A DNA stretch of 52,623 nucleotides, filler included, from Stramenopiles sp. TOSAG23-3 (Eukaryota), in NCBI GenBank assembly GCA_900128585.1. It is 4 parts of 4 records of this genome, joined end to end, with 100 filler letters (N's around TTAATTAATTAA, not from the genome) between each part and the next. Parts side by side here need not be neighbours in the genome. Positions count along the whole stretch, not along the records: positions 24,242 to 48,380 come from LT642311.1; 3 more parts are not named here. One strand, given 5' to 3'. The notes under the pieces were generated by a model. It did no database searches, was not told the origin of the DNA, and saw only the letters and a list, made by a program, of their open reading frames with translations. Below, piece by piece: positions 518 through 46,791 of the stretch (its first letter is position 1; each line of letters starts with the position of its first letter). The position numbers were made by a program, and so were the translations under genes.

Positions 518-543
518 NNNNNNNNNNNNNNNNNNNNNNNNNN
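518..543. other. Scaffold gap (26 N)
   Basis: Run of N. Confidence 1.
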
Positions 544-1543: not shown

Positions 1544-2613
1544 ATCACAGGCAAGCTTACTGTTAGTTTCATAAGTTACGAAAATTTTTAAGTTACAGAT
1601 AGGATATGTCGGGGTTTTAGGTTTCCCCCAACACGGTGGTTTAGTTTTATTGTTGGTTTAATGGGTGTTAGAAGACAAATATTGATTTTTGATGAACGTT
1701 CACAAAAGCAAAAAGATAAAGAAAAGTAACTTGAGTGGTTTTCAATCGAATGGAAACATTTTACTTGATAATCAAGAAAAAAATAATTAGGGTTGTCCTA
1801 AAACAAATAGTAGGATAATGGTGAGTCAAAGGAGTTTAGAACACAATTATTAATTGTAGTGAACATTCACAAAATTGACAATATAAAAGAAGATTGAGAG
1901 AGAAAAAGAAGATTAACCTGAGTGGTTTCCAATGGAAACTACTTGGTAACTTAGATAAACTGATTTTGCTTTTTTTCAATCAAATTAATGACAACCTGTT
2001 AGCAATGCAATTAGAACAAAAACTATATTTAAGGACATAATTAACAACAATAATAATACAATATTATACTCCTTAATTAGTGAATAAGTAACAGGGACAC
2101 ACTGTCAATGTTTAGTAAATTTTTTTAAGAAAAGAACAGAAAAATCGTAGTCGTTTTTTATTTAGGCCCCCTAGGATTTAATTAACGACACCCATTTCCC
2201 CTATCAATCAATCTCTTATTGGCACCTAAAATAATTTAAAATCAAACCAAATAATGCCAATACAAACTAAACCAGCTTAACCAAATCCGAAATTTCAGTT
2301 TTTCTCCCCCTTCTAGACGCGAGGCGAGGACTCTAAATAATCCCAGATCTTACGCCAGCTCTGAAGGGACTCCTCGATATAAATATTAAGGTTTAAATTA
2401 TAATATAATTATTTTTAAAAAAAAATTTGGAATCTAATTACAGTATCAAATTTGGAAACCTTAACTAAAAGAAACCCGGATACATGAAACATTGGGAACC
2501 AGCTGGTGTAGGGGGTAATTGCAACCATTAATAAAGTGCTTCATCGACACAGCATTGCAAACAAAACGAAAAAGAAAAAAAATAGCATGCTTATATGCTG
2601 TGTTCATTTTAAC

Positions 2614-2716
2614 AAATTGATATAGACACAGCAAAGTGTGTTGGTAATAAATTGCATATAGGCACAGCAAGGTGTTTTTGTAATAAATTGTATATAGACA
2701 CAGCAAGGCGTGTTTG
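2614..2716 (+). repeat. Tandem minisatellite, about 3 x 36 bp
   Basis: Units aaattg(y)atatagrcacagcaargygtkttkgt repeated head-to-tail with no spacers. Confidence 0.85.
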
Positions 2717-19500: not shown

Positions 19501-22500
19501 GGTAAAACAGAAAAAGTCTGTGTTAAAACTCCAGGCGTACATTCGGCGCTGTTTTGGCAGACTACGCTTTTTACGAATCCGGCGCGGTTTAAGAGTTCTG
19601 CATGGTCTATCAAGGGGGTTTATAGTGCGACGGCACGTTTTACGGATGCTTCAAGCTGTCAAAATCATTCAATTTTCAGTAAGGAAATATTTGAAAAGTA
19701 TGAGCCTCCATTGGAGAAAAGTAAGAGCTGCGTTATTTGTACAAGCGCTGTGGAGAGGTATGAGGCTAAGACAATCTCGTGAAGACATTGTAGAATATCT
19801 AGCTGTAAAACGAGATGATCGTGCGAAAATAATTGCTATCGTAAAACTACAGGGGGCATGGAAAACATGCTTAATAAAACGCAAATACCGCCAAATTGTC
19901 GAGTGCGTTTCATGCATAAACAGGTTTTTCCAGACTACCCGTCTTCGTCGAAGATTTATGAAGATTCTCTCCGCCTCCAGGCTAATTCAGCGTGTTGTAA
20001 GAGGCATGATTACTCGATTTAGAATTCGAAAAATGAAAACTATTTATGAAGTTGCAGATGAATTATGGAGGCTTCAGGTATTGCGCGAGCGTGAAGCCTT
20101 GGATCTTTTAAAATACCAGAACATCACTCTCAACGAGTATGAAAATCTTGAGTTAACGCAGCGTTCGCCATTACCATGCTATTGTGTAAATATCGACACG
20201 CACACAGATAGCTCAGAAGCTTATCCAAGTGGGTGGATAAAAAACTACCACTTATTTTTATCTAGTTTGCTTTCTGCCAACAGGCGCCCCATGCAAATAT
20301 GTGTTGGAAACAGTCATACATTATGTCTAGATACTGTTGGGGATATGTACTCCTGGGGATGGGGTGATAGAGGTCAGCTAGGTCATAATCAATACAAAAA
20401 CGAATATGCTGCTCGTAAAGTCGCATCATTTTTGAACACAACTGACCGGTCTGCTTGGCAAGGTCAAAAATTGTCACCTCTGAGAGTATTATCAACTCAG
20501 GTGGCAATTAAACAAATGGCTTGTGGGGATGATCACAGCGTCGTTTTGTCTCGAGAAGGGGTTGTATTTTCGTGGGGATCTAATCGTAGGGGGCAACTTG
20601 GGCTTGGTGTTGCTTCTAATAGCGTCGCTTCACCAACACGTGTACACTCATTAAGAACACGGATTGGAGAGGTATCATGCGGTGCGCAACATACTGTCAC
20701 TCTTACACTATCAGGTAATGTTTATGTGTGGGGTAAAGGGGAACAACTTGGCCTAGGTGTGTGTTGTCCAAATGCAGGTGACAAAAACTTACCTCAAAGC
20801 TTAAAGTCACTGAAACGCTTTAGGATACGGCATATTTCTTGTGGATTATTTAGTACATTGGTTCTGGCACACAAAGGTGATATTTATAGTTGGGGAATTG
20901 GAAAGTGGGGGCAATTGGGCCATGGGAATTTTAAAGATCGTTTTGTACCCTGCCTGATTCGTCACCTGAAAGAAGATAGCCCAGATTACGAAAAATTTGA
21001 GAGTTTGTCTTGCGGAGCCCGCCATTGCGTCGCGGCATCATCCAAAGGGCGCGTTTATACTTGGGGCTGGAACTGCAACGGGCAACTTGGTCATGGGCAT
21101 AAACATAATATTAATCTCCCCACTATGGTGATATCGCTCGAAAAAGAAAGCATCTCTCAAGTGGGTGCGGGATGGCGGCACACAGTAGTTTTGTCAAAGA
21201 GTTCAGAAAAACTGTACATTTGGGGGATCTGCAGTTTTAACAAAAATAACAAGAAAAAAGCTCATTGCAAAAACGACAAAATGTTAAATGAAAGCACAGT
21301 TCCGCTTGCAATCCCATGGAACCAGGGAAGCTATTGCACCATAAAATCAGTTACAGTTGCATGGAGCCGAATGTTAAGTGTGACATATGTCAACTGCACC
21401 CGTAACGAATCAAAATCTGGAACACATTTCACACTTTTACGGCAAATAGAAGATACCCCCGAAAAAAAGACAGGTGGTTGTAGCAAAGGTATTTTGTCTA
21501 CATCCGGAAACGCATTTATCTCGCAACAAGAGAAATACAAACAAAATAGAAGACGTCATTTTACTAGAACTGAAAAGTTTTTAAGAAAAGATTTAAAAAA
21601 TCTGTCTGTTGCACAACTATGGGATTTAGTTTTGGATATGCAAGATACCGTCCCCCATAAAATGAAATTAATTAAGACGGGCACTTCAAAAATGCATCAC
21701 ACAGACTACATTTTTAAACACAAGTCTAATGATGAGCGCACCAACACATTTAGAGTTGAGGGTATGGGCTGGAACAAAATCAGTTCTGGGGTAAATCTAG
21801 CAGGTCGCGCAAAAGAACGTGCTTGGAAACAAGTTTTTACCGCTAACGGCAATTCACGAACTCAAAATGCAAAAATCCAAACAAGAAATTATACAAATGT
21901 AACTGACTTAATAAAATTTGGCGACCATGGGAGTAACGAATCAAAAAGCACTGATCAAAAAATCAAACTTCAAAATGCTGGAGATGTAAATATGCCCACC
22001 CGGAAAGCAGGGAAAGGCTGGCGTCGTGGGCGGAATCAGCGTGAGGGATTTATAGCAGAGGGTAGAATGTTAGAATATTTTTCTCCAGAGGAACTTGTAG
22101 CAACTTCAAACGAAGATTTATCTCTTGGAGATGTTGTTGCTATGAGAATCGCAAGGGGTGTACCTCCATCTCTGCCAAAATATTATAGAAGACTTCAGAA
22201 AAACGATCTTAATGCAAAGGCTGTTGGTTCAACATCTTTAATGTCACAGAAACATCGGCAGCTTCAGTTGCTCAACTCCGCTGGCACGGTTAGAGGGCTT
22301 ATCGGTACTGGAAGGGACTATTTCCAGAAAGGAAAACACAGACGGGATCTTCACATAAAAACACTAGGCAAGTTTTCGCGGAAAACGCAAAACGCCATGA
22401 ACAAAAAGAGGGATATTGTCGATGTTTTCAGATCTCAATCCCAAGTAAAATCGTCAGCAGATTCTTCTTCAGAAATGATTGCTGGTACCTATCAGAAAAG

Positions 22501-22867
22501 TGCCTTTTCGGGAGTGCCTGACTGGTCAGGTCGTAGAAGTAGCGCAACCGTTAAAATCAGGCAACAAATAAGCGATGATATTTTAAAAAAAGACAATGGG
22601 AAGGACGATTACGCGTCACATTTTTTTTCAAGTGAACATGTTCCATATGGAAATGTTGTCGACACAAGTGATTCTCGTAACCCTACTACGGAAAAGAAGG
22701 GCAATAAGAGGGGTCCCTCATACTCTCAGTTAAGGAACGAAGTAGAATGCTTGCGGTTGAAGCTGAAAGAAAAAACTTCGTTGGATGCTTTTGGGGACGA
22801 TACAACGACAAACGTGCGAACAAGGGCTCGTTCTGATGCGCGGAAAATATTAGAGGGTGATGTATGA
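16595..22867 (+). CDS. Unconventional myosin: motor domain + multiple IQ motifs + RCC1-repeat tail + low-complexity basic C-terminus
   Basis: P-loop GESGAGKT, switch I NNNSSRFGKY, switch II LLDIFGFE, PRFVRCIKSN. About 8-10 IQ-like motifs (IQASYR, IQAAFRG, LQAYIR, VQALWRG, IQRVVRG). About 6 RCC1 repeats (YSWGWGDRGQLG, FSWGSNRRGQLG, YSWGIGKWGQLG, YTWGWNCNGQLG). First ATG at 16595. Confidence 0.95.
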   Translation: MATKRTSKASKTGTLRKEHKVSLPNTMNTEYFQPGVKVWLENPYDEGTSAYRINHLSNSISTRPMYVPAIITEKLKHDSTVAVLTEWNPRLKVELAIESVWPMNDKGVSVDDMVDYTHLHEPAILSNIQARYNDKQIYTKAGEILIAMNPYQLVLDKQGIAIYDHYYMDLYREGGNVAMLNSMGHLQNRNDRPPHIFETANDAYRRIISDHKSQSIIISGESGAGKTETTKQIMQYVANLSSINSTGQSAPTDIASSRRRSASNRDSANAMNNSLEVPLIEKQLLQSNPILESFGNAKTLRNNNSSRFGKYMRIFFDRAGRIIGGSIKHFLLEKSRVSDQLQGERSYHFFYQLCRGVKGDLRKSLFLDSPESFDFLSKSGSHEITNSCMGGANSSDEADFYAVNEALSVIGLDENRIMQIYKIVSIVLHLGNLEFVEADDSHSLSGMSVSGVISSKKKNLEAVSELLGIDEKIIMESVTTKQTKAGGQVLISKIDKREASGAVSSLAKALYARLFSYIVKAINAGIKKTVTSELRTANDFDTNPKFVFLGLLDIFGFEVFTEGNGFEQLLINYANERLHNLFIKHVFRLEEVKFKQEGIDYSSVSFTDNQTVIDLIAKKPSGIFHQLCDACLFGKMSDETILEKMAQKFAKLKPSKSGINPASLFSLAHIRKRGCFIINHSANDVTYSIEGFSTKNKDFLKPQIQIILSEMSNLSVVKEIFEKDISKSTAATRSTLSGANVMLSLRFEENITKLIGLIEETIPRFVRCIKSNEYKRPFFFDTAKVYNQLQYLGVLDSVRIRHDGYSYQKRYRDFFEHFVIVIPAPKAQREFQLIQPAGADYRALSLKVMDIYWRWGKEYSENKSIFDIKRKPYYIQFGNTKLFMRKELSQALETLREIRLRKIEDAAVKIQASYRMHYISYKLEKVYSCTGKIQAAFRGIHYRKKWMKRKHAILEIQKWMKTILSRRLWVKQKKSVLKLQAYIRRCFGRLRFLRIRRGLRVLHGLSRGFIVRRHVLRMLQAVKIIQFSVRKYLKSMSLHWRKVRAALFVQALWRGMRLRQSREDIVEYLAVKRDDRAKIIAIVKLQGAWKTCLIKRKYRQIVECVSCINRFFQTTRLRRRFMKILSASRLIQRVVRGMITRFRIRKMKTIYEVADELWRLQVLREREALDLLKYQNITLNEYENLELTQRSPLPCYCVNIDTHTDSSEAYPSGWIKNYHLFLSSLLSANRRPMQICVGNSHTLCLDTVGDMYSWGWGDRGQLGHNQYKNEYAARKVASFLNTTDRSAWQGQKLSPLRVLSTQVAIKQMACGDDHSVVLSREGVVFSWGSNRRGQLGLGVASNSVASPTRVHSLRTRIGEVSCGAQHTVTLTLSGNVYVWGKGEQLGLGVCCPNAGDKNLPQSLKSLKRFRIRHISCGLFSTLVLAHKGDIYSWGIGKWGQLGHGNFKDRFVPCLIRHLKEDSPDYEKFESLSCGARHCVAASSKGRVYTWGWNCNGQLGHGHKHNINLPTMVISLEKESISQVGAGWRHTVVLSKSSEKLYIWGICSFNKNNKKKAHCKNDKMLNESTVPLAIPWNQGSYCTIKSVTVAWSRMLSVTYVNCTRNESKSGTHFTLLRQIEDTPEKKTGGCSKGILSTSGNAFISQQEKYKQNRRRHFTRTEKFLRKDLKNLSVAQLWDLVLDMQDTVPHKMKLIKTGTSKMHHTDYIFKHKSNDERTNTFRVEGMGWNKISSGVNLAGRAKERAWKQVFTANGNSRTQNAKIQTRNYTNVTDLIKFGDHGSNESKSTDQKIKLQNAGDVNMPTRKAGKGWRRGRNQREGFIAEGRMLEYFSPEELVATSNEDLSLGDVVAMRIARGVPPSLPKYYRRLQKNDLNAKAVGSTSLMSQKHRQLQLLNSAGTVRGLIGTGRDYFQKGKHRRDLHIKTLGKFSRKTQNAMNKKRDIVDVFRSQSQVKSSADSSSEMIAGTYQKSAFSGVPDWSGRRSSATVKIRQQISDDILKKDNGKDDYASHFFSSEHVPYGNVVDTSDSRNPTTEKKGNKRGPSYSQLRNEVECLRLKLKEKTSLDAFGDDTTTNVRTRARSDARKILEGDV

Positions 22868-29281: not shown

Positions 29282-30961
29282 ATGAACGAGACGAAGTTGA
29301 TAGCAGAGAAGAACAAAGTCATGGACGACTTGGCGTCCCAACGGGCCATTATTGAGAGGCTTCGGAACGACAATAGATCATTGGAGCAGGAGCTTTCGCT
29401 GGAGAAACACATGACTGCGCTCGCTACGAGCGAGTCGGCGGTAAAAGAAATCGAAAAATTGCAGAGCATTGGGGACACATTCGCTAGAAGAATACAGATG
29501 GAGAAGAGACGGATAGAGGAACTTGACACCAAGATCGAGGACGCCCAGAAGAAAGTCCTCTCGCAACGCAGCAAGGTCGGCGGCGTGAACGCGTCGAAGG
29601 AAAACAACAACATTATTAGCAAGCAAATTCGAATATTGGAGAGAAGGCTGGACTTGGCGCTGACAAAGTACAATGATACCTTGGCAAACAACAAGGGTTT
29701 GCGATCCAAGGTGGACGAACTGCGAAAGGAGCGTGTCATCTTTGATGGTATATATAAAAAGCTGGAAAAAGAAATGCATGAAAAGAAAAAGAATATTGAC
29801 CAGCTTGTGGACGAGGCCAACCGCGCGTACCAGTCCAGGGACGAAGCCAAGGAGGACCTGCGTGTTTTAAATAAGAAGGCGCACGATGCCCGTACCCGCT
29901 TTGAGCGCGAATGGAAGGCTGCTGGCGCAATGATCGATTCGGACAGGAAGGGAATGGTGAACGAGAAGCAGAAGCTGGCCACTGCGGCCAATTTTATGGC
30001 GAACAAGAAAAACTTGTCCGCGGCCGAAGAAGAAAAAATGAAGAAGAAAATCGCTAGGGGGGCCTGGAACATTGGGAAAGACAAGGCCGCCCTGACGCTC
30101 TCGCAGGAGAAAGTTGAGTCCTACGAAGTGGCATTTTCTAAAATCCAGGCTGCGACAGGAATCCAAGATATTGACGAGCTAGTTGACAAGTTCATCAAAG
30201 CCGAGGACAAAAATTTTGCAATGTTTACCCACGTCAACAAGCTGGCCGCGGAGGCCGACAACATGGAGCAGTCGATCGGTGATATCAAGGCGGAGATAGA
30301 GAAGTACAAAGGCAAGTCCAACAACACAGAAAATCAAAGAAAGCGGATATTGAAGAGCTTGGAGGCCAAATTAGAAAAGGCAGAATCAAAGGCGGAGCAC
30401 TACGATTCCCGCTACAAGGAGGCGATGAGCGTGGTTACCCTGTTAAAGAAAGGGATCGAAGGCCTGTTCTCCCGCATCGGGTGTTACACGGAAGGGTTTG
30501 CCGAAATGCTGGGCAACCAAGGCGTTACGGACTCGAACATAATGCAGTATTTGGGGATCATCGAGCAGCGCACGAATGAAATTTTGCAGATGTTCCATGC
30601 CGCTAAGAAAACAGGAAGCGCAAAGCAAGTCCGGGCGATCGCGGGGTCCCCGACCAACGCTTTGACGGCCGTGGATGAATCGGCCGTGCGCAGCGTGAAC
30701 GCAAACGCGCAGGGCAGGAAGGTGGCGGACACGACAAAGATATTGGCCGACGGTCCGAAAATTTCAGTGTCCCCAAAGCCGATAGAAGTGCGACCGCCTG
30801 GGGTTGAGTTTTTCGGGGAAGAAAATGGCGGGGGGTTCGACGAGAGGCCTTTGCCGCTGGGCGAGTTGCAGCGGAAGACCAAATCCATTCTACGCGAAGG
30901 CAGCGGATCTCCCCACAGTGGGGCGAAAGCGCGAGGCGGGGCCCTGTCTCAAACTCGATAA
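29282..30961 (+). CDS. ODAD1: Outer dynein arm docking complex subunit (ODA-DC2/ODA1, CCDC114/CCDC63 family)
   Basis: Coiled coil with family motifs KQIRILERRLDLALTKYN...NKGLRSKVDELRKER, FIKAEDKNFAMFTHVN and GVTDSNIMQYLGIIEQRTNE. Confidence 0.88.
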   Translation: MNETKLIAEKNKVMDDLASQRAIIERLRNDNRSLEQELSLEKHMTALATSESAVKEIEKLQSIGDTFARRIQMEKRRIEELDTKIEDAQKKVLSQRSKVGGVNASKENNNIISKQIRILERRLDLALTKYNDTLANNKGLRSKVDELRKERVIFDGIYKKLEKEMHEKKKNIDQLVDEANRAYQSRDEAKEDLRVLNKKAHDARTRFEREWKAAGAMIDSDRKGMVNEKQKLATAANFMANKKNLSAAEEEKMKKKIARGAWNIGKDKAALTLSQEKVESYEVAFSKIQAATGIQDIDELVDKFIKAEDKNFAMFTHVNKLAAEADNMEQSIGDIKAEIEKYKGKSNNTENQRKRILKSLEAKLEKAESKAEHYDSRYKEAMSVVTLLKKGIEGLFSRIGCYTEGFAEMLGNQGVTDSNIMQYLGIIEQRTNEILQMFHAAKKTGSAKQVRAIAGSPTNALTAVDESAVRSVNANAQGRKVADTTKILADGPKISVSPKPIEVRPPGVEFFGEENGGGFDERPLPLGELQRKTKSILREGSGSPHSGAKARGGALSQTR

Positions 30962-35567: not shown

Positions 35568-37736
35568 ATGTTGCGTCTAGGCACCACCGCTGCGCGCAGG
35601 GCGGCCGGTGGGAAGATATTTTTTAGTGCTAGGCCTGCGCAATTGATAGCAACGTTTGCGAGTATGACGGACGTGGTCGACAAGGCGGGGCTCGCTTGTG
35701 AAAGCGTTCTCCCGTTCAAGATAGAATCCTCCGTGGTGAATGCCTACAAGGAGCGAACCCCCCCGTTTGGATTCAACGGTCTCGGGGAGTTGGTCTACCG
35801 CAGAACGTACGCCCGAGAGCTCCAGAACGGGGAGCAAGGGTCGGAACAGTGGTACCAGACGGTAGAAAGGGTCGTCAACGGCACGTACAACATGCAAAAG
35901 CGCTGGATACTGTCGAATGATTTGGATTGGGATGATGAGCGCGCCCAGAACTCTGCAAAAAACATGTACGGTCTCATTTTTGACATGAAATTTCTTCCCC
36001 CTGGCAGGGGGCTCTGGGCGATGGGCTCGCCCATAACAGAGGAGCGGCAGCTGTACGCCGCGTTGAACAATTGTGCCTTTGTAAGCACCCGCGTCCCAGA
36101 AGAATCCTCGGGGGAAGAGAAACCTGACCCAGCCCTTCCGTACATGTTCCTCATGGACGCCAGCATGCTTGGGGTTGGCGTGGGGTTCGATACTCACGCT
36201 GCGGGCAAGGTCGACGTCTACGCCCCGCGGGGCAGCGAGACCAACGTGTTCCCTGTGCCCGACTCACGGGAGGGGTGGGTTGAGTCCGTGAAAATGTTGC
36301 TGGACTCCTACTTCAAACCGAACGAGGAGGAAGTCCACTTTGACTACTCCCTGCTCCGTCCTGCGGGGTCGCCCATTCGAGGCTTTGGGGGGTACAGCTC
36401 GGGGTCACAAACGTTGAAGGAGCTGCACAAACGCATCCGAGGCACGCTGGACCCCCTCGGCTCGAAGACATTGACGATCACGGCGATCGTGGACCTGATG
36501 AACCACATTGGAAAGTGCGTCGTTTCGGGGAACGTTCGTCGGACGGCAGAGATTGCGTTCGGCGAGCCCGACTCGGAGGAGTACGTGGACCTTAAGAACT
36601 ACGAGGTCAACCCGCAGCGGGCAGAGTACGGGTGGACAAGCAACAACAGCGTCTTCGCGAAGCTGGGAATGTCGTACGACTCGGTCTGCGAGCGCGTGGC
36701 GGTGAACGGGGAGCCGGGTTTTGCGTGGCTCGAGAACATGAGAGCGTACGGGCGCATGGTTGACCCGCCGAACTACGCCGACTATCGCGTCATGGGCGGG
36801 AACCCCTGCCTGGAGCAATCCTTGGAGTCGTATGAAATGTGCTGCCTCGTGGAAACGTTCCCCGCCCGGCACAAAGACCTGGACGAGTACCTTCACACGC
36901 TGAAGTACGCGTACCTGTACGCCAAGTCGGTCACCTTGGGGGAGACGCACTGGGACCAGACGAACGAGGTCATGTCCAGAAACCGCAGGATAGGCTGCAG
37001 CATGAGCGGCATTGCCCAGCTCATCGCGAGGGACGGCCTGGACGCGCTGAGGGAGTGGAGCGAGGCGGGATACGAAACCGTCCAGGGCACCGACGACCGG
37101 CTCTCGTCGTGGTTCAACGTTCCACCGTCGGTAAAGACGACGTCGATCAAGCCGAGCGGCACCGTCTCCTTGCTGGCCGGGGCGACCCCAGGGATCCACT
37201 TTCCCGAGTCGCGGTTCTACATTCGAAGGGTGCGCATGGGCGCGGACTCAAACTTGCTCGCGCCCCTGGAGAGCGCTGGGTACCACATCGAGCCCGCGGT
37301 GGACAGCCCAGAGACCATGGTGGTCGTGGAAATCCCCGTCGACGCGGGCGAAAACGTGCGCACGGTCTCCGAGGTCAGCATGTGGGAGCAGCTTTCGCTG
37401 GCCGCGTTCATGCAGCGGTATTGGGCGGACAACCAAGTCAGTTGTACCGTCACGTTCGACCCAGAGACGGAACAGAAGGACTTGGCACGGGCCCTCGATG
37501 TCTTTCAGTACCAGCTGAAAGGCGTGAGCTTCTTGCCCAAACTTCCCATGGGCGCGTACGAGCAGATGCCGTACGAAGAGATATCTGAATCGGACTACAA
37601 GGAGAGAATGAAGGGGTTGGCGCCCGTAGATTTTACAGAGAGTGCGCTGAATTCAAGGGACGACACGGAGTTGAACGCAAACAATGGCGCAAACGGCCCT
37701 GACGCATTCTGTGATGGGGACAAGTGTACTATTTAA
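35568..37736 (+). CDS. nrdJ: Class II adenosylcobalamin-dependent ribonucleotide reductase, monomeric RTPR type, with mitochondrial-type presequence
   Basis: GELVYRRTYAR, FLPPGRGLW, LNNCAFV (redox Cys), GVGVGFD, VVSGNVRR, NGEPG, radical loop GGNPCLEQ, CCLVE, TSIKPSGTVSLLAG, WADNQVSCTVTF, C-terminal CDGDKC. The N-terminus MLRLGTTAARRAAGGKIFFSARPA lacks acidic residues. Confidence 0.95.
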   Translation: MLRLGTTAARRAAGGKIFFSARPAQLIATFASMTDVVDKAGLACESVLPFKIESSVVNAYKERTPPFGFNGLGELVYRRTYARELQNGEQGSEQWYQTVERVVNGTYNMQKRWILSNDLDWDDERAQNSAKNMYGLIFDMKFLPPGRGLWAMGSPITEERQLYAALNNCAFVSTRVPEESSGEEKPDPALPYMFLMDASMLGVGVGFDTHAAGKVDVYAPRGSETNVFPVPDSREGWVESVKMLLDSYFKPNEEEVHFDYSLLRPAGSPIRGFGGYSSGSQTLKELHKRIRGTLDPLGSKTLTITAIVDLMNHIGKCVVSGNVRRTAEIAFGEPDSEEYVDLKNYEVNPQRAEYGWTSNNSVFAKLGMSYDSVCERVAVNGEPGFAWLENMRAYGRMVDPPNYADYRVMGGNPCLEQSLESYEMCCLVETFPARHKDLDEYLHTLKYAYLYAKSVTLGETHWDQTNEVMSRNRRIGCSMSGIAQLIARDGLDALREWSEAGYETVQGTDDRLSSWFNVPPSVKTTSIKPSGTVSLLAGATPGIHFPESRFYIRRVRMGADSNLLAPLESAGYHIEPAVDSPETMVVVEIPVDAGENVRTVSEVSMWEQLSLAAFMQRYWADNQVSCTVTFDPETEQKDLARALDVFQYQLKGVSFLPKLPMGAYEQMPYEEISESDYKERMKGLAPVDFTESALNSRDDTELNANNGANGPDAFCDGDKCTI

Positions 37737-37841: not shown

Positions 37842-40800
37842 TCAACTTTCATTTTGGAAATCTTCTTTCAGCGTTTTCTCCACCAACTCGTTTACATTGA
37901 TTTTGCTTATCATATCTTTCAGACCTGCAGACTTGCCCGCCAGCAGCGGCATTACTCCTCCAATCCCAGCACCGAAAGCAGTCCCTTCTGTGAACGCGGA
38001 AAATCCCATAAGCACAAAAATCAGTATGCACAAAAGCCATATCAAAATTCCAGCAATTGCGGGGTACATTGTAGCCTCTGTCAGGCCAATTTTTGCGAGG
38101 GACGCTTTTGTTATCTCTTTTTCGAGGAGTTTCATGCACTTTTCAAATTCTTTCATGTTTAACGTCCCAGAACCGTTGCTGTCGGATTTTGCAAACAACG
38201 CTTTGCATCTTTGGGTTGAAAGATTTAGTTTTAAATTTTCGTTGCATAAGGCAACAAACTCTCCAAAATCGACTTCCCCATCTCCACTGGTATCCACTTG
38301 CTTGAACATCGTCTTGTACTTTTCTTCCTTTGACACGGATTTGCTCTTCATTGTTTTGCTTGTGCGACTTTTTTCTACGACTGCCATAACCTTTTTTCCC
38401 CCATCAATGATCTGCATGGCTTTTCCCTTCATTTCAGGATTGTCATCAAAGATTATATCAACAAGCTGTTCGACCATGACCGTCAGTTTCTTTGGAAGTT
38501 TCTCCTTGCTCGCCGGCAGTTTTGACGCCAATTTTGCGAGCTCAATTGCTCGTGTCATTTTTGACTTTTTCCCATCCATTGCCTCTTTTTCCGGAGCACT
38601 CCCTGCGGATTTCGGTTGTCCCCTTGGGAGTTTTGCGGCAATTTGTGGGCAGTAGGCCTGTAACGCTTGCTTTAAAAAAGCAATTGCCCTTTGGGTATAT
38701 TCAGCTTTGATTATTTGAATTCCACCATTAGGTCCGTCCCATACAATCTCTGACGGCCGACCAGCGATCATTTTGTTTCGCGCGTCGTTTACAAACGCGT
38801 TGCTTTTATCGCTACTGAAAAGTATTTTTCTAATTGGCGGTATCCCAGATGTCCCCTTGGTTTGGTCTTCAAATATTAACAAACTATTGACAAAGTAATG
38901 CAGCAAACGTTTCATCTTTCGCATTCGACGCAAATCGGCATCTTCTTCGTCCCCTTCTTTCTCATCTTCTTCTTTCTCGTCTTTTTTAATCTGATTCAGT
39001 AACGCACGGGTCAACTTCCCAGTTTCCCCAGGCACAAGGCTGACAGCTCTTGTTGTGGGGTTGAATTGGTCTATCGGGGCAATCCGCATTACGCTTTTGA
39101 TCAAATCTGTTGCTTCATCGACCATGGTTGACACTCCCTTGTCATCTTTCGGTTTCTTTGAGGGGGTGTTTGAATTGAAAACACGATTCCACGACAATCC
39201 ACATATTTTCAAAAGCTTGGCTATTACAGGGCGGTACTTTTCCTTCGTTTCCTTTTCTTCTTTGGTACCAGCATTAACCCCGATAACGGCAAGCAATTGA
39301 TCAATGATTATATTTATAATCTTTTCCTGGCAAACAAGAATTTGCTTTGTTTGCTTCCCCTTTGATGCAACCAAAAGTTTGATTAATTTTGAAAACTGCT
39401 CGTCGCAGCTGTATAATATATCAATAGTAAAAAGATTTTTCACGGAATTCATTATAACAGCCGATCCACGCCGAAACTTTTTACTAACCTTGTTTTTAAG
39501 CTTGAACGCTTCCACCATCAACATATTCTTGATGGAATTAAAAGACACAAACATTAAACACGCCACCAACACGTCTTCTAGGCCAAAACTTACCCTTGAT
39601 GGCATTTTTAGACCAGTGGCGCCAGTTGAGGATTGCTCTTTCGTGCGCGAAGATTTCTTCACTTCAGGCGGTTTATTCAACGCAGTCATTGCCGTTTGCA
39701 AGAAACTTACCAATTTGTCCTTCGTTGCAGTAAATGTTTTCATATCGTCTGCGCATATTTTCATGAACCATGTTGTAAAGCGTACAAATGATGCCATGTG
39801 TGGGTTGTTCCCTGGTCTAACCAATGGCACTATTGCATGGCCTAGCTTCCCAATCGTGTCGCGTGCGTTTAAACTGTCGCTAGCGAAGCAAGCTCCCGCA
39901 AGGAGTACCACTACGTTCACCTTTTTTTTATCCGTCTCAGGGCCACAGCAATGGTTAACGACAACTTTAATAGCCAGAGCTCGAAATGCAACCAGCTGAT
40001 CATCACGTTCGCTTTGGGCTGCGCATGCAACAAAATCTTTCAGGTATGCAACACGGGGGTCCTTCAAACCTTCATTCCCAAGCTTCATAACGATGGCGTT
40101 GTCAATAGCTTTCATGCATAACACCAATTGACCCTTTTCCGTCTGAAGTGCTTTGAATATTTCTGTTGCCGTCATATCTACGCCAGCAAAGACAGGTGGC
40201 AATTTTGGCATGGCTTTTGCCAACTTTTCCTTTCCCGCTCCTGCAATTTGCTGACTTTGCTGCAGGAGTGTAGCAATAAAATCGCTCACACAGTGTTCCA
40301 GTTTTTTCATTAACTTATCGCGTTGCTTGTCAAAGTCAGAAAACATAGCTTTGATTGCACCGACCATAACCAACACTGTCGATGCAAATGCAAGCGTTCG
40401 TTCCGGTTGTATGATTGCACCTAAAACCCACCAACTTAAAACCATGCCTACGTAGGCAACAACAAGTGAGAGAATAAAGTTCAGTAGCACCAAAAATAAA
40501 AAATGGACTAAGGCATGGAACCAGTTCACCAGCTGCGGTGGTTGCACGGCTTGCAGTTTTTTGTACACATGGGTCTGTGTTTGGGAGTCTTCTTCGGAAG
40601 CGCTCACACAAGGGAAAAAGTCCGTACGATTTGCTTCGACAACGACGTAATTTTTAACTTTGCCGTCTCGGGTTATATTAACGTCCTGAATTTTAAATAT
40701 TTTGCTCTTAGATTTTTTGTCAGCAGAATCGTTGCTCACTTTTTTTCTGCACTGGCACAGAAGCTTCATAAACATCAAAAATGTGCCTAAAGCACCCTTA

Positions 40801-43800
40801 TTTGTTTTTCCCTTCTTTATAATCACCCATTCCCCCTTCTTAAAACACCCTGCGTTCTCTCCTCTTCCAAACAGTTGAATGTCACCGTGCAGATAATAGA
40901 GCAGCAAGTCGATGTTTCCTACCGCAAAAAAAATATAGTTGATCATCATGCAAAATTCAATATTATAAAAGTGGTCGGGTATCTCAAAAAACCTGTACGG
41001 GGTGTGTATCATCTCCTTAAACGTAAATATTCTCCCAGGTTCAGCAAACTGTGTGTATGGGTCAACTGTAGCAAACATTACCGCTGTTAGCAAAACAGAT
41101 GGGATAATAATGAAGATCTCTCTCAAAATTAACAGCACAAAGCTCACGCCATAACCTCGAAACTTTACGCAAACATAAAATATTGCAAGAGGGAGAAAGT
41201 TCAGCGTGGTTAATAGAAAGGCAATACAAGCACCAGCAAATCGTAAGTTAGGCCATGGGTCTGACGATTGTGTTTCTCTTCCTTCTGAAGGCTCAAATTT
41301 TACATTTTGAAACGATTTTGATTTGATGTCGTACGAAAATTCGTAATCCTCTCTCAAAGTGGATATCAGCTCGTCTGTTTCCACCTTTACTAGACCTTTT
41401 GAATCGCAGTAAGTATTATAGCGATCAACCAAAATGTTTAGTTTTATACTTCCAGCTTTTCTAATTTCAGCAACATGCTGCTGCAAGCGTTTTTGGTTTC
41501 CCAGGTTCCACGTCTTCATGGGCAAGCAAGGCAAAGAATGTATTAGCAGAAACGACTCTTTCTTTTTCTTCTTTTGAGAGTTTTCTTCCTCGTCTTCAAC
41601 GCTGGATTCGTCGGAATCACTGTCAGAGTCGCCGTAGCTGCTGCTGGCATCAGATTCCTCTTCGTCATCGCTGCCCTCTTCGCTGTCATCACCATCGTCA
41701 AGAATATCGTCTTCTCCAGCGCCAGTGTCAGCAACGACTGGTATATACTTGTATTGTAAAAACTTCCTGTTTGATCCATAACATTCGAGAAGGTAAAACA
41801 CTGCTAACCCGTACTGCACCAAAATATTTTGCTTTGAGTACCACTCGTTCTTGACTTTCCTTTCATCCAGAATTTCGTCTTCTAAAAAATTTCGTATGGA
41901 ATTTTTAAAATAGGGTGCCACAAATAAATGGTACCCAACGTCAGCAATTTCCCAAAAATTAAGGGGTTCGACGTAGTCGGCAGTTTCCCGCTCCCTCAAC
42001 AGCCACACTTTATCACAAAGCTCCAAGCACTTGTTTATTTTGACAATAACCTTGTCGTCAATCTTGCAATATGCCTTGTTAACTAAGTCGATAATTACCT
42101 TTGCAGATGCGTAGTCCTTGACGTACCCTTGCCGATTTTTTACAATTTCGTCCCCGAACTGCTCTTCGGCATCCACCCAAAACTTAAGGAACTGATTTTC
42201 ACCGACTGGGTCGGTTCGAGTTGGATCGATACTAGGAAATATCTGCAGTATGGTACGCGAATGATTTTCGTTTCGGTCTTTTTCGTCCTGCTTTTCCTTC
42301 TCTCTCTCTGGGTCGTTATTGAACATGCCAAACACGCCGCTCATAAGTCCACGTGACTTCGGCGAGTCCTTCCAATGATCGGGCGCGTTAGTGAAAAACG
42401 CAGTGTAAGTCTCAATAGAAGTCCTGTACTTGCTTCTTATTGCGTTTATGCGAGCAAATTGAGAGTGCAATTTCTCTAGTTTGGACATTTTTCTTCCCAT
42501 TTTTCTTATGGAACCACGAACGCAGCAACAATGGCAAAACGTGGACAAAATTCTGTCGCAGAGGTACCTACATTTTGTCGGGCAGTCTGACTCGATGACG
42601 TCGTCATCTTCGCCATCGTCGTCCTCAGCGTTAACTCCGATATGCCCCATTGATATTTTTCTATGGATTTTTGCCTTCTTCAATTCATTTCCGGACAATT
42701 TCTTAATCTGCTTCCTCAGGTCTTCTAAAGCTGGCTCAAAATATGAAATTGCACGCATTTCTTTCTCGCCTGCAGTTTTATCGACGACATTCCAAAACTG
42801 TTTTGAATCTTCTTCCATTGGGTCATCTCCGTCGTCTTCTCCGAGCTCCTTTGTTCTCCGTTTGATATTTTTTTCTAGCCTTACTTGTCCCTCCGTCAAA
42901 CTCAGCTTTCTTCGTTCGCGCAAAAACGCGTTGTATCGGTGAATCAGTACTCGCCGAAGGCTTGGAACAACCAGAAAGAACGACAGTGTTAAGTAAAACG
43001 CGATCAAAATGAATGTAAAGTACACAGTGGCGCCAGCTTCCCGGTTGCCTGGGAGTGATGATACAGGTTTGATCTGGTAAGTTCCGTCGCCTTGACGATT
43101 GTAGAGCGTAAGACCGATTGGGGTCCACGTTTTTGGGTCTAGGTAATTTGGGTCCCACTTGATCCCACTTGCTCGTTCAGCGACATCACCAGAATATTCT
43201 CCCAACCAAGATAGAACGCTCGTGGGGGCCCCGTCCGCTCTTTCTACTATGGCATCATGCACTGCCCCCATCTGTGCCCCTGAGAGCGTTGCATCTGGCA
43301 ACGATTCGACAGGGCAGTAACCCGGACTCAAACGCATAAATTTAACTGGCCCTTGTCTAGCACTGATCAACGAACCCGAAAACATAGACAACCGGTCGTT
43401 CCTAATAAGAATATATGGCGTTCGTGTAACGTAGACCCACAGTGACTCGCCCAATGCGGACGACTTACTCTTCATATTCAATCGTACGAGAACAGGGCTG
43501 TTTTTCTCTGCGTTTTCAAACCCCTTTATGTACTTTAAGTTCGTTGTGCCTACTCTATCAAAACGGAGTTGTTCCGATTTGTAGGCAAATCCCTGAAATG
43601 TTTGGTAGGGGGAGCAGAACCCCCAACCCTCTTCGTCTGCGAAAGTGCTGTTCGCCGTACAATTGCTGGGTCCATTCATGTACATATTTGATGAGCAAGA
43701 TCCATTGGATGGCTTGCTCAAATCACGTTCGTCGATCTGGCACCATGCTCGTTCCCCTTGGCCCTCTGTGGTACAATCCCAGTGTATTCGATTACTCGCA

Positions 43801-45635
43801 GCATCACGAAATGGAAATTTGCAACGTTTGCCAGAGATGGTTTTGCGAACGTTGTACATGTTGTCCCGCGTTGCGTTGTAATCAACAGCACTGAAGTAGA
43901 CGCCACCCTTTAGTGCATGAACAGAGAGCAATCTCACACTTTCGGTATCGCCATATTTGCAATTATCGTCCGCGGCGTTACACATCAATACTCTACCTTT
44001 GCAGGTACCCGACAACGGCTGGTCGCTTATCTTCGATGTATTGGAGGAGTTAGACTGTGTGACGTTTGGGGCCTCGCAATCATTTGCCTCAAGGGCAACA
44101 GCGTGGCTGGCGGCGCAGACTACACCTTCATTTTGAGAGTAAATGAACCTGGTAGAGGATAACATTGAGACCCGCACCGTCCCCCCGCATTCTTTTTCAC
44201 CCGTATCGCATTGCGATTTATTCGTTGGAATCAATATGCCTGGCTTGTCTCTGGCCCCTAAATCCACCCCAGTCTTTAGCCTGCTGGAAGCATTTGTTTC
44301 TTTCATCTCTTCCGGTATATCTTTCGGGAGCATATGCAAACCTTTTATATCAATGTGCCCCGATTCAAGCCTTACGTCGATATCTTTCACTTTTAAGTTG
44401 TTCATCTTTACTTCTGCCGTCGTTGCATTGATGGCCAACCTGTTTATTTCCAATTCCCAGCGCGGGCGGAGAGACTCCCCATCCATTACTCCCTCTGTTT
44501 TCTCCTCGTGTTTTTTTATTTTTATCGGGGGGTTAGACTTGGTGGCTACGATCGTAACGGATGAAAGGGGGTTATAAACCCAAACGGTTATCGAGCACGG
44601 GGATACCGACCCCACCGCTTCTTTTCCAGTGACCTGGACAGTGCTGTTGGGAAGTGGGTTTGGGCCTTTCCACCAGGATACCTCCTGTTTGAGAACTTTA
44701 CGGCCATTTGAAATGTCGTACGGGTTCACGTAGTCTGCACTCATACGCACGTAACTCCCGTCGTTATCCGGTATGTTTTGTACGAATGATATCATTGGCA
44801 AATGATACGAGTAATCGATGCAGTAATGATTAAGCCCAAAAATTTGGTTATTTGAATCAAACGTTTTTGTCAATTGATGGGTGCAATCGTTGCCTACCCC
44901 ATATCGAAAAAACAATCTCAACGTAGCCTCCAATATATTTGGAGGGGGTGCGCCCCACCAGTCTGAGCAAGAATACCCGGTGTTGTCGTCGCTGGGCTGA
45001 GTGGGTTTCAGATCCAGGCATCCCTGGGGGTAGTTGGGGACTGAGCCATTAAATGCTTCAGCATTGTTGATCGGTGGTATTCTCTTGAATTGTACGTCAC
45101 AGCCTTCTGATCGAATCACTAACGGGACAGTGTTGTGAACGAGGCCGACTGCGGTCACAGACCGGCCAGTTCCCAAATAAAACCATATTAGCATAAGCAC
45201 GAAGCCTACCATTCCAAAAAGGAGGGACGCCAAAACACAGTTAAAGGCCCGGTTTGAACGTGCGTCTTTGATCCATTTAATTTCGGGCAATGGGAACATT
45301 TGGAACGTGTCGGGACCCAGCTCAACATTGTGTCTTTTGTACACAAAGTGTGGCCCTGCCTTTTTGTCTTCGGTCTGTCCTTCTTCTTCTTGGAAGCTTT
45401 CTTCCTGGGCATTTGTTGACTTACTATTACCGTATTGCCCCATCTCTATGTCACCATCACTATGTGCCGCTATTTGTTTCGCAACCTTATTGCTTTTACG
45501 GCGTTTAGGGGGAGAGGTTTGTTTTCTGCCATAGAGCGGGTTGGTAAAAGGGAGTTTCTCTGGGGGGGGAGAAGTATAACCAGGCGGGGGTGGTGGTGGT
45601 GGTGACGCTTTGGGGGATGGGGGTGGACCCGACAT
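37842..45635 (-). CDS. Uncharacterised 2597-aa polytopic membrane protein with Cys-rich ectodomain (fibronectin type II-like module) and EF-hand pair
   Basis: Single 7.8-kb ORF with a Pro-rich N-terminus and at least 8 hydrophobic segments. Fn2-like TISGKRCKFPF...HWDCTTEG...AWCQ...WGFC (about 43614-43844). EF-hand loops DTSGDGEVDFGEF and DSNGSGTLNMKEF (about 38145-38300). Confidence 0.85.
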   Translation of the reverse strand: MSGPPPSPKASPPPPPPPGYTSPPPEKLPFTNPLYGRKQTSPPKRRKSNKVAKQIAAHSDGDIEMGQYGNSKSTNAQEESFQEEEGQTEDKKAGPHFVYKRHNVELGPDTFQMFPLPEIKWIKDARSNRAFNCVLASLLFGMVGFVLMLIWFYLGTGRSVTAVGLVHNTVPLVIRSEGCDVQFKRIPPINNAEAFNGSVPNYPQGCLDLKPTQPSDDNTGYSCSDWWGAPPPNILEATLRLFFRYGVGNDCTHQLTKTFDSNNQIFGLNHYCIDYSYHLPMISFVQNIPDNDGSYVRMSADYVNPYDISNGRKVLKQEVSWWKGPNPLPNSTVQVTGKEAVGSVSPCSITVWVYNPLSSVTIVATKSNPPIKIKKHEEKTEGVMDGESLRPRWELEINRLAINATTAEVKMNNLKVKDIDVRLESGHIDIKGLHMLPKDIPEEMKETNASSRLKTGVDLGARDKPGILIPTNKSQCDTGEKECGGTVRVSMLSSTRFIYSQNEGVVCAASHAVALEANDCEAPNVTQSNSSNTSKISDQPLSGTCKGRVLMCNAADDNCKYGDTESVRLLSVHALKGGVYFSAVDYNATRDNMYNVRKTISGKRCKFPFRDAASNRIHWDCTTEGQGERAWCQIDERDLSKPSNGSCSSNMYMNGPSNCTANSTFADEEGWGFCSPYQTFQGFAYKSEQLRFDRVGTTNLKYIKGFENAEKNSPVLVRLNMKSKSSALGESLWVYVTRTPYILIRNDRLSMFSGSLISARQGPVKFMRLSPGYCPVESLPDATLSGAQMGAVHDAIVERADGAPTSVLSWLGEYSGDVAERASGIKWDPNYLDPKTWTPIGLTLYNRQGDGTYQIKPVSSLPGNREAGATVYFTFILIAFYLTLSFFLVVPSLRRVLIHRYNAFLRERRKLSLTEGQVRLEKNIKRRTKELGEDDGDDPMEEDSKQFWNVVDKTAGEKEMRAISYFEPALEDLRKQIKKLSGNELKKAKIHRKISMGHIGVNAEDDDGEDDDVIESDCPTKCRYLCDRILSTFCHCCCVRGSIRKMGRKMSKLEKLHSQFARINAIRSKYRTSIETYTAFFTNAPDHWKDSPKSRGLMSGVFGMFNNDPEREKEKQDEKDRNENHSRTILQIFPSIDPTRTDPVGENQFLKFWVDAEEQFGDEIVKNRQGYVKDYASAKVIIDLVNKAYCKIDDKVIVKINKCLELCDKVWLLRERETADYVEPLNFWEIADVGYHLFVAPYFKNSIRNFLEDEILDERKVKNEWYSKQNILVQYGLAVFYLLECYGSNRKFLQYKYIPVVADTGAGEDDILDDGDDSEEGSDDEEESDASSSYGDSDSDSDESSVEDEEENSQKKKKKESFLLIHSLPCLPMKTWNLGNQKRLQQHVAEIRKAGSIKLNILVDRYNTYCDSKGLVKVETDELISTLREDYEFSYDIKSKSFQNVKFEPSEGRETQSSDPWPNLRFAGACIAFLLTTLNFLPLAIFYVCVKFRGYGVSFVLLILREIFIIIPSVLLTAVMFATVDPYTQFAEPGRIFTFKEMIHTPYRFFEIPDHFYNIEFCMMINYIFFAVGNIDLLLYYLHGDIQLFGRGENAGCFKKGEWVIIKKGKTNKGALGTFLMFMKLLCQCRKKVSNDSADKKSKSKIFKIQDVNITRDGKVKNYVVVEANRTDFFPCVSASEEDSQTQTHVYKKLQAVQPPQLVNWFHALVHFLFLVLLNFILSLVVAYVGMVLSWWVLGAIIQPERTLAFASTVLVMVGAIKAMFSDFDKQRDKLMKKLEHCVSDFIATLLQQSQQIAGAGKEKLAKAMPKLPPVFAGVDMTATEIFKALQTEKGQLVLCMKAIDNAIVMKLGNEGLKDPRVAYLKDFVACAAQSERDDQLVAFRALAIKVVVNHCCGPETDKKKVNVVVLLAGACFASDSLNARDTIGKLGHAIVPLVRPGNNPHMASFVRFTTWFMKICADDMKTFTATKDKLVSFLQTAMTALNKPPEVKKSSRTKEQSSTGATGLKMPSRVSFGLEDVLVACLMFVSFNSIKNMLMVEAFKLKNKVSKKFRRGSAVIMNSVKNLFTIDILYSCDEQFSKLIKLLVASKGKQTKQILVCQEKIINIIIDQLLAVIGVNAGTKEEKETKEKYRPVIAKLLKICGLSWNRVFNSNTPSKKPKDDKGVSTMVDEATDLIKSVMRIAPIDQFNPTTRAVSLVPGETGKLTRALLNQIKKDEKEEDEKEGDEEDADLRRMRKMKRLLHYFVNSLLIFEDQTKGTSGIPPIRKILFSSDKSNAFVNDARNKMIAGRPSEIVWDGPNGGIQIIKAEYTQRAIAFLKQALQAYCPQIAAKLPRGQPKSAGSAPEKEAMDGKKSKMTRAIELAKLASKLPASKEKLPKKLTVMVEQLVDIIFDDNPEMKGKAMQIIDGGKKVMAVVEKSRTSKTMKSKSVSKEEKYKTMFKQVDTSGDGEVDFGEFVALCNENLKLNLSTQRCKALFAKSDSNGSGTLNMKEFEKCMKLLEKEITKASLAKIGLTEATMYPAIAGILIWLLCILIFVLMGFSAFTEGTAFGAGIGGVMPLLAGKSAGLKDMISKINVNELVEKTLKEDFQNES

Positions 45636-46791
45636 GAGTGCAAGTGCAAATGTCAGGTAAATGCTTTTAAACGGGCACTGTTTAGCACAAGATACGATTG
45701 ATTATGGTAAGTATTTACGTTCTCGTCTCAGAACTGCACCCTGGAAAAATACAAAGGATTGTCACCGCACTCCATTTCTCTTTACTTTACTAATTCAATG
45801 CACGGTTTCTATCTAAAAAACAACCACAACAAATAATTATATCATACATAGCAGTAATAATAATATATTTTTTTATTATTAAAAGCCCAAACCACCCATA
45901 CATATAATAATTATTTGTTTTATGACGCTGCTGCTGCTCCTCTCTTGAACATAAACATAAAATTGATTATAAATTCTTTTTCTTCTTTTTGTGATATGTT
46001 TGGAGAATCACAAAAAAAGATATTGTCATTGTTGGAACAAATCCATACAGGAAGTCACAAGGACCATGTGGCCTAGAAAACATAGACACAACATTTCGTT
46101 GTTAATACTTTAAAATATAGTTAGTAATAATATGAAAGGAGGCTATAATACAATTCGACTGGTGCAGTTTGGAGAGGGGCAGGCGAGGCTGGATGGATGG
46201 CAAAAAGCAGTACTGAATACTGAATCTGGAGAAACGACTACGGGACTAGCTAAGTAGAAAAGCCGAGAAGTCAGAGCAGCAGACGGTCTGGTTCTTCATA
46301 ACATAAACATAGCATTACAACTTTGTTATACATAAGAGTAATATTATTTCATCATCTGGTTCAAGTTGTTTTGTACGCATTTAACGTTATCTGCTTGGAA
46401 CAATTGAAGATGGCAGACGGTTTTTGTCCCCTTTCTCCTTGTGGCCTGCTGCTACGTACGTAGTAATAAATAATAATAATAAGATTTTCTTTATTTTTAA
46501 TATTGATGAAGAATATAGACACAGCACCAGGATCAATATAAAAAATTGTATTAATAACAAAAAAAAAAATTATTATCGAATCTTTTCTCTATTATTAGTC
46601 TATTATATACCTTGGTACTACTCCCAAAATTAGCCACAACAATTAAGACTTGTCCCTTCGGGAAATAAATACTGTGTCGCTTCGCGAAATATTGATTGTA
46701 AGTAATTACATACTGCTTACTAGTACATCGGATCGACAATGTCTTCATTTCCAAAGGGACGAATCTTCAGTTTGCTTATTTGGGCATCGTC

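Follow-up and report, generated by a model that had tools for sequence, protein, structure and literature searches.

Channels of the CNG/HCN type have cyclic nucleotide monophosphate (cNMP)-binding domains, and those of the RyR/IP3R type have helical solenoids together with an EF-hand pair. A giant open reading frame (ORF) of Stramenopiles sp. TOSAG23-3, which lies at 37842..45635 on the minus strand of the 52,623-nucleotide (nt) stretch of DNA analyzed here (the window), can be compared with these second-messenger-gated channels in a 'works like' sense only, as its 2597-amino-acid (aa) product likewise combines a membrane core with large cytosolic helical regions and EF-hands, with a cNMP-binding domain present in one homologue (P0004). 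However, the giant ORF has no channel-family Pfam match at E ≤ 1, no P-loop or unit of six transmembrane segments (TMs) was recognized in it, the RyR rows returned by Foldseek for its model have a probability of 0.05-0.09 and are noise, and its domain order differs in being core, solenoid, EF pair and one last TM. The EF pair itself is like that of SCaMC-1 (PDB 4n5x, 4zcu) and the lobes of calmodulin, the SCaMC pair being likewise fused to a membrane protein; unlike SCaMC-1, the giant ORF has a single pair in 2597 aa, situated ~20 residues ahead of a TM, and no mitochondrial-carrier domain. A module in its head shares the C-x-F-P-F...D-C-T-T-E-G...W-C...W-G-F-C pattern of the fibronectin type II (Fn2) modules of fibronectin, MMP-2/MMP-9, PDC-109 and factor XII, but differs from these in having ~35 extra residues with two extra invariant Cys and in being placed within the head of a protist protein that crosses the membrane several times; this likeness comes from sequence, the head model having a predicted local distance difference test (pLDDT) score of 40.6 and the fold being unconfirmed. 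Finally, Toastrack (DUF4097/DUF2154/DUF2807) and fungal DUF7330 beta-helix proteins also have a TM segment followed by a beta-rich repeat-like stretch, although bacterial Toastrack is argued, in PMC11237479, to be intracellular and the stretch in the giant ORF appears to lie in an exoplasmic head.

The giant ORF is a genuine gene that is apparently expressed and unspliced, and its alignments make it a member of a wider family of ~30 unnamed protist proteins that share one membrane core. An initial annotation of the window had described a giant protein with an architecture unlike that of any family known to it, and every feature that it listed was found at its expected place. In order along the protein, these are:

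37842..45635, minus strand: whole ORF (P0001), 2597 aa plus stop, with an ATG start that is the first ATG after a stop
45237..45635, minus strand: N-terminal tail, aa 1-133, Pro-rich over aa 1-30, predicted to be cytosolic
45177..45236, minus strand: TM1, aa 134-153, hydropathy 2.51, present in all three homologues
43026..45176, minus strand: ectodomain (head), aa 154-870, predicted exoplasmic from its Cys and sequons
44346..44447, minus strand: beta-solenoid-like stretch INRLAINATT...GHIDI, aa 397-430, with a weak and unconfirmed Toastrack/DUF4097 likeness
43614..43823, minus strand: Fn2 module, aa 605-674 (C605...WGFC674), from PF00040, the cysteine pattern and PDB matches
42957..43022, minus strand: TM2, aa 872-893, hydropathy 2.33, with five Arg in the next 15 residues
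41241..42956, minus strand: predicted cytosolic region 1, aa 894-1465, with CHCCC at aa 1034-1038 (42522-42536) and an acidic tract at aa ~1303-1351 (~41583-41729)
40887..41240, minus strand: membrane core part 1, with TM3 (aa 1466-1490, possibly re-entrant), TM4 (1498-1523), an acidic loop and TM5 (1557-1583)
40536..40886, minus strand: TM5-TM6 loop, aa 1584-1700, basic, with a small beta unit around VNITRDGKVKNY
40335..40535, minus strand: membrane core part 2, the TM6-TM7 helical hairpin, aa 1701-1767, with the family motif WWVLGAIIQPERTLAFAS at 1735-1752
38331..40334, minus strand: all-helical region, aa 1768-2435, predicted cytosolic, from DSSP on a low-confidence model
38115..38330, minus strand: EF-hand pair, aa 2436-2507, with loops at 2448-2459 (38259-38294) and 2485-2496 (38148-38183)
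37920..38078, minus strand: C-terminal TM, aa 2527-2545, hydropathy 2.94, and Gly-rich segment GTAFGAGIGGVMPLLAGKSAG, aa 2551-2571

The 2597 codons form the sole long frame at the locus and run without interruption, and at the ~42-46% GC of this DNA a chance origin of a 7.8-kb open frame is impossible. Two homologues extend over its full length, namely P0003 (2571 aa), which is colinear with it at 41% identity and 99% coverage, and P0004 (3627 aa), which is ~40% identical; an independent metagenome contig (L013) carries a piece identical to the giant ORF. Transcription is indicated by sequencing runs, as 20 of the 23 listed contain part of the ORF (14 of those 20 recorded as RNA; 13 studies). 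We aligned to it the contigs of four runs from three studies, three of which (X2, X3 and X4) are metatranscriptomic, with X3 and X4 being poly-A, while the RNA nature of the fourth library (X1) is uncertain and a guess. At least 99% identity to the ORF was exhibited by 7 of 8 contigs in X2, 13 of 15 in X3, 14 of 17 in X4 and 13 of 23 in X1, and of 30 bins these contigs cover 16, 21, 18 and 25, respectively. The RNA-library contigs are colinear with the ORF, in patches, from 37858 to ~45625 and contain no believable splice joint, which is in keeping with an expressed gene without splicing, as the 'intronless' description had it. These contigs fall short of proving one 8-kb message on two counts: the longest aligned contig piece is 1718 nt, with none spanning the entire ORF, and RNA libraries can contain DNA. 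No contig of X2, X3 or X4 lies over 45626-46327, 5' of the ATG, and the uncovered part is not counted as evidence. A joint from 42511 to 45591 was considered as an intron and judged unreliable, given that it occurs in a single X4 contig with just 21 letters on one side. One X4 contig departs from the window sequence at 45611 (codon 9, beside a C-run) and continues with 255 unlike letters; strain variation, a chimeric contig or an alternative 5' end could account for the departures at 45611 and 42511/45591. The source label 'merc' on the fragments P0016 and P0020 does not establish an RNA origin and was not used for expression.

The wider family was found with profiles and patterns from the membrane core. 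Specifically, a HMMER search with aa 1440-2430 on 1.84 billion representatives returned 10 matches, of which seven are fragments of 85-200 aa; the other three (P0022, P0023 and P0024) are long, and their match lies in the TM6-TM7 hairpin. P0022 (2404 aa) is without the head; its core motif lies at residue 293, and it also has an EF pair at 2245-2305 and the last TM with its Gly-rich segment. P0024 (1546 aa) and P0023 (1171 aa) contain, in order, the end of the head, TM2, a cytosolic module, TM4-TM5 and TM6-TM7; the colinear matches over five segments in the distant members are weak, and TM3 is missing from them. A profile of the TM6-TM7 hairpin recovered 17 proteins of 351-2000 aa, all without a Pfam domain or a descriptive name, and a degenerate DNA pattern of the motif found 21 loci in metagenomes, seven of which (L013 and L006 among them) are true members, with the remaining 14 being chance matches with stops or in unrelated frames. 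Another pattern search of metagenome contigs gave 135 matches and zero relatives. None of the ~30 relatives is descriptively named and none is from NCBI or UniRef sources.

No characterized family was found to span this protein in Pfam, NCBIfam, PDB sequences or fold searches. Known families account for ~6% of its length (Fn2 plus the EF pair), as Pfam at E ≤ 1 and NCBIfam, run on the whole protein, matched solely EF-hand and Fn2 and no TM family. Sequence and profile searches of the PDB likewise returned nothing beyond EF-hand and Fn2, the best match of the core profile (E 0.073) being to unrelated soluble proteins. For structure searches we used an AlphaFold2 (AF2) model of aa 1440-2597, built from a 27-row alignment with P0022 left out, that has a mean pLDDT of 58.4 and a predicted TM-score (pTM) of 0.35. 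Foldseek gave 0 matches to it at E ≤ 0.001, and in VIA-align the list was filled by EF-hand lobes and generic helical bundles, so that the TM part of this low-confidence model was barely probed; the ESM Atlas returned small EF-hand clusters alone (0.75-0.76) for the same residues. Searches of full-text literature, which took in few subscription journals, gave no description of the family. Thus the statement that no characterized family has this architecture held in Pfam, NCBIfam, PDB sequences, fold searches and the literature; the initial annotation is to be corrected in that the core recurs in a wider unnamed family. The protein family and its architecture appear to be new; newness is not claimed for the mechanism.

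Conservation within this family is concentrated in the membrane. The core TM4-TM7 carries the family motif W-W/C-I/V-L-G-A-x-x-N/Q-P, and in its second part F1714 (22/22 rows), W1735 (24/25), A1740 (26/26) and P1744 (25/26) are conserved, as are P1512 (17/17), G1573 (19/19) and G1584 (19/19) in its first part. Position 1576 within TM5 is acidic in all 19 rows (D in 3, E in 16). The loop between TM4 and TM5 is net acidic in 17 of 22 rows and that between TM5 and TM6 is net basic in 23 of 24; the latter has a median length of 14 residues over the 24 rows counted, its long version being specific to the subfamily. The TM6-TM7 hairpin, which is 69% identical to P0003 and 64% to P0004, is modeled as two long helices (aa 1701-1742 and 1744-1799) joined at Q-P-E-R, with a block pLDDT of 62-84. 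In the low-confidence model the segment WWVLGAII falls within one long helix, and the 'bundle of 5-6 TMs' of the initial annotation, although its hydrophobic segments are all present, more likely consists of four spans and a segment that may be re-entrant. As a side observation, a small beta hairpin 'KIFKIQDVNITRDGKVKNYVVVE' occurs in the TM5-TM6 loop at aa ~1646-1667 (window 40680-40740, minus strand; block pLDDT 73-77 in the low-confidence model). Its motif reads VNITR in the fragment P0017 and VNILK in P0019, and its sequon N1653 is conserved in all three homologues, though the loop is predicted to be cytosolic.

The second conserved part is the EF-hand pair with the membrane segment that follows it. 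The pair (aa 2438-2501 in Pfam) scores 36.6 bits with PF13499 EF-hand_7 (cut-off 30) and 38 bits with PF00036 EF-hand_1 (cut-off 25.4), and its two 12-residue loops, DTSGDGEVDFGE and DSNGSGTLNMKE, are canonical here as well as in P0003, P0004 and P0022. Among PDB sequences its best match is SCaMC-1 (E 9.4e-8), with calmodulins also matched, and it is the only part of the model with strong fold matches (VIA-align Z 8.9 and a root mean square deviation of 2.4 A over 72 aa; Foldseek probability 1.0, TM-score 0.75). The two canonical EF-hands named by the initial annotation are thus borne out by Pfam, by their loops and by the fold of the lobe, and we regard the pair as a putative Ca2+-sensing module. 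It is 76% identical to P0003 and 61% to P0004, and the C-terminal TM unit is the best-conserved part of all (77% and 68%, respectively). The EF pair, the last TM and the Gly-rich segment are also common to P0022 (BLASTP E 9e-13 over aa 2443-2567), and the hydrophobic element expected at the C terminus is found as the TM at 2527-2545 followed by the Gly-rich segment at 2551-2571. The helical region between core and EF pair matches no Pfam family over aa 1768-2435 and is 31% identical to P0003 and 23% to P0004. Because identity is 61-77% for the membrane elements and EF pair versus 23-31% for the helical region, the membrane elements and the Ca2+ switch would appear to be the parts under strongest constraint.

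Relatives of the giant ORF differ in the sensors that accompany the core. P0004 has a cNMP-binding domain (PF00027, 48.8 bits) between TM2 and TM3, that is, in cytosolic region 1; this domain was not found in the giant ORF at E ≤ 1. A new subfamily member on the metagenome locus L006 (ORF 2-4027, minus strand) has a ~365-aa insertion (residues 214-580) in its TM5-TM6 loop that contains an EF-hand pair (38.4 bits) 33% identical to the C-terminal pair of the giant ORF, of which it may be a duplicated and transposed copy. These sequences suggest that one membrane core has been combined with sensors of Ca2+ and of cyclic nucleotides in three separate places on its cytosolic side. At residues ~1040-1100 and ~1620-1900 of P0004 we also observed the cNMP-binding domain, a second cNMP-like stretch and three CxxC...CxxC patterns; the second stretch and the ZZ-finger look of the patterns are by eye only, with no Pfam ZZ match at E ≤ 0.1. 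We decided against a further TM around LVQYGLAVFYLLE in aa 894-1465: in P0004 this position has the Pfam cNMP-binding domain on one side, and on the other side a stretch that is cNMP-like by eye, without a Pfam match.

The head is more variable, being 42% identical to P0003 and 41% to P0004. It contains 20 Cys, 18 of which are invariant in the three aligned homologues, and 12 N-x-S/T sequons in 718 aa, five of them conserved. An Fn2-like module with a Cys-containing insertion in its last loop had been proposed and is upheld by PF00040, by Fn2 matches in the PDB and by its invariant Cys. The PF00040 score in the giant ORF is borderline against a gathering cut-off of 22.2 bits (18.6 bits with the whole protein, 22.3 bits with the ectodomain alone), and is clear in P0003 (34.5 bits) and P0004 (28.5 bits); the match covers profile positions 1-30 of 42 only. 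When aa 590-690 were compared with PDB sequences, the best seven of the 12 matches were Fn2 proteins (E 2.4e-4 to 0.02), and the Fn2 residues C605, C621, C632, C674, F607, P608, F609, W631 and W671-G-F are invariant in all three sequences. The ~35-aa insertion lies between the third and fourth Cys, carries two further invariant Cys (C647 and C659) and brings the module to 70 aa, where a compact Fn2 module has about 40-60 residues. A passage of PMC4176579 deals with fibronectin type III domains, not type II. Although present, the module does not define the family as the proposed architecture implied: no Fn2 is present in the ectodomains of distant family members, and it is a subfamily-specific insertion.

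The beta-solenoid/DUF4097 claim also stood in part, as the stretch itself is present and Toastrack membership did not hold. PF13349 matches the ectodomain at aa 397-431 with E 0.12 and 12.2 bits, below the cut-off of 22.9, and does so in one of nine members scanned; the nearest ESM Atlas clusters to the head are DUF7330/DUF4097 at 0.77-0.79, which is under the level that counts; and no solved Toastrack entry was matched when the family profile was run against PDB sequences. The AF2 model of the head (9-row alignment) is beta-rich, at the poor pLDDT of 40.6. We take the likeness of aa 397-430 as a lead only, a possible resemblance and not membership. Ahead of TM1, where 4 K/R occur within 15 residues, the N-terminal tail has the motifs PPGY (aa 17-20) and FTNPLY (aa 30-35; window 45531-45587, minus strand), which we take to resemble a WW-binding motif (PPxY-like) and an endocytic NPxY signal (FxNPxY-like), respectively. 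In the alignment they are conserved in neither P0003 nor P0004.

We infer that the head is exoplasmic, either outside the cell or lumenal, because of its 12 sequons and 18 invariant Cys, and we place in the cytosol region 894-1465, the TM5-TM6 loop, the helical region and the EF-hands. There is one sequon in the 572 aa of cytosolic region 1 and none in the 668 aa of the helical region. The TM5-TM6 loop is assigned to the cytosol because it is net basic in nearly all rows and contains an EF-hand pair in L006, and as TM6-TM7 forms a two-span hairpin in the model, the helical region and EF-hands would return to the same side. TM3 may be re-entrant, a reading that is based on its mid-helix Pro/Gly (MPPNVFVFP in P0003) and its absence from distant members.

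Given this arrangement, we tentatively favor, at somewhat less than even chances, a surface sensor in which a conserved membrane core is regulated by cytosolic Ca2+, the core possibly being a channel or transporter. In this mechanism the core would be the working part and would conduct or bind ions in a channel- or transporter-like manner, cytosolic Ca2+ on the EF-hand pair beside the last TM would set its state, cNMP or a second EF pair would provide added control in paralogues, and the outside head, including Fn2, would provide ligand or surface contact, so that the protein would couple outside contact to ion or Ca2+ signaling. That the core is repeatedly fused to EF-hand and cNMP-binding modules raises the plausibility of a membrane function under second-messenger control, and an ion path is favored by these same fusions together with the always-acidic intramembrane residue and the invariant Gly and Pro. 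The Ca2+-regulated receptor/channel of the initial annotation, which would link prey contact to Ca2+ signaling, is likewise a candidate function. A bolder version, a new receptor-channel class in heterotrophic flagellates with an oligomeric 4-5-TM core, an essential intramembrane acidic residue, gating by Ca2+ (and by cNMP in paralogues) and an Fn2-bearing head that touches prey or particles, is speculative and on present evidence improbable.

Several points weigh against the regulated-core reading. The searches turned up no pore, selectivity filter or transporter fold, the model of aa 1440-2597 being poor, and neither Foldseek at the above threshold nor VIA-align returned anything specific beyond the EF-hand. 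The core is small, with four to five spans, and a pore would require oligomerization. By hydropathy TM3-TM5 are three segments, and the proposed topology fails unless TM3 is re-entrant. Moreover, kinases, exchange factors, scaffolds and other non-channel proteins are also under the control of EF-hand and cNMP modules, a buried acidic residue can be conserved for purely structural reasons, and a 668-aa helical region would equally suit a scaffold.

This last point leads to the alternative that survives best, a non-conducting adhesion or recognition receptor plus scaffold, whose head would bind prey, matrix or surface glycans, whose TMs would serve as anchors, and whose helical region would dock cytoskeleton or endocytic/phagocytic machinery under an EF switch. 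It is somewhat unlikely, though still a serious candidate. An Fn2-containing head rich in Cys and sequons does resemble adhesion receptors, and no signature of an enzyme or a channel was seen in the helical region. However, the membrane segments are the best-conserved parts (64-77% versus 23-42% for head and helical region), the always-acidic intramembrane residue and invariant Gly and Pro exceed the needs of an anchor, and P0022 is headless yet retains the core, EF pair and last TM. The PPGY and FTNPLY motifs, with their WW-binding and endocytic NPxY-like looks, would fit such a receptor but for their lack of conservation in P0003 and P0004. Likewise, PMC11237479 proposes that bacterial Toastrack domains serve close to membranes as platforms on which proteins dock, which would suit a scaffold, but the Toastrack likeness of the head is sub-threshold.

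Next is the possibility that the protein resides in an internal membrane (endoplasmic reticulum, phagosome, food vacuole or contractile-vacuole system) with a lumenal head and works in that organelle as a Ca2+-responsive channel, transporter or tether. Sequons, disulfide-type Cys and charge bias separate exoplasmic from cytosolic only, the lumen being topologically equivalent to the outside, and cytosolic EF-hands beside a membrane core equally fit organellar Ca2+ release or uptake; Fn2, on the other hand, is mainly found in secreted and surface proteins, and we consider this location rather improbable. Poorer still, and very unlikely, is a structural anchor for a hair, a scale or another appendage of the surface or flagellum, tethered to the axoneme or cytoskeleton with the EF-hands as a Ca2+-dependent latch. 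The giant size, outside head and long inside helical region suit a tether and the window encodes flagellar proteins (ODAD1-type, TPH domain), but in eukaryotes gene neighborhood says little about function, the Pfam/NCBIfam scans gave no axonemal or hair-protein domain, and conserved polar core residues and the cNMP module of P0004 are unexpected in a passive anchor. Finally, the notion that the ORF is non-functional, being an assembly artefact, fused gene model or decaying pseudogene, is already close to refuted, for although the window is from an uncultured-type assembly and each RNA contig is shorter than the ORF, the frame is unbroken, its full-length homologues conserve Cys, EF loops and TM motifs, identical DNA occurs on an independent contig and contigs of three studies match it at 99% identity or more.

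The host is probably a marine heterotrophic flagellate close to MAST-4 stramenopiles, as judged from one EukProt label: a 200-aa relative fragment that is 66% identical and labeled 'Stramenopile-MAST_4' is the sole named relative. Other long ORFs of the window encode a WD40 protein, a TPH-domain protein, a myosin with RCC1 repeats, a myotubularin-type phosphatase, an ODAD1-type outer-dynein-arm docking protein, a Cys/Met-metabolism pyridoxal-phosphate enzyme, a pseudouridine synthase and an RTPR-type class II ribonucleotide reductase. The TPH-domain protein (13274-14644, minus strand) and the ODAD1-type coiled-coil protein (29282-30961, plus strand) both belong to axoneme-associated families, which indicates that the organism builds a motile flagellum. 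The myosin (16589-22867, plus strand) is a 2092-aa protein with an unusual tail, having a Myosin_head of 634 bits, an IQ motif and a C-terminal RCC1 propeller of 213 bits. The ribonucleotide reductase (35568-37736, plus strand) is B12-dependent by type, with Pfam RNR_Alpha and an RNR-II insertion domain and a match to PDB 1l1l at E 1.4e-91. It sits in a eukaryotic neighborhood, convergent with the giant ORF with ~105 nt between the stop codons, and its stretch has a GC of 0.576 versus 0.42-0.46 next door and is covered by X2 contigs over 36500-37654.

Much of the grazing on marine bacteria is done by small uncultured flagellates, MAST-4 among them, and the molecular basis of their sensing of prey and response to it is largely unknown. 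The giant ORF provides a concrete candidate for such sensing, in that it encodes a large surface-type protein that is apparently expressed, in which conservation is highest in an unclassified membrane core and a putative Ca2+-sensing switch, and whose relatives have a core that appears to have repeatedly gained other second-messenger sensors. Orphan giant proteins are common in protists; unlike these, the giant ORF has a deeply conserved core, what looks like a clear regulatory logic and an ecological setting that wants a link between prey sensing and Ca2+. If the core proves non-conducting, this would still be a new and widely spread family of protist membrane proteins without a database name, and an ion-conducting core would make it a new family of channels. 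Were the receptor-channel reading to be true, the protein would tie prey contact directly, at the molecular level, to Ca2+ signaling in the ocean's main bacterivores.

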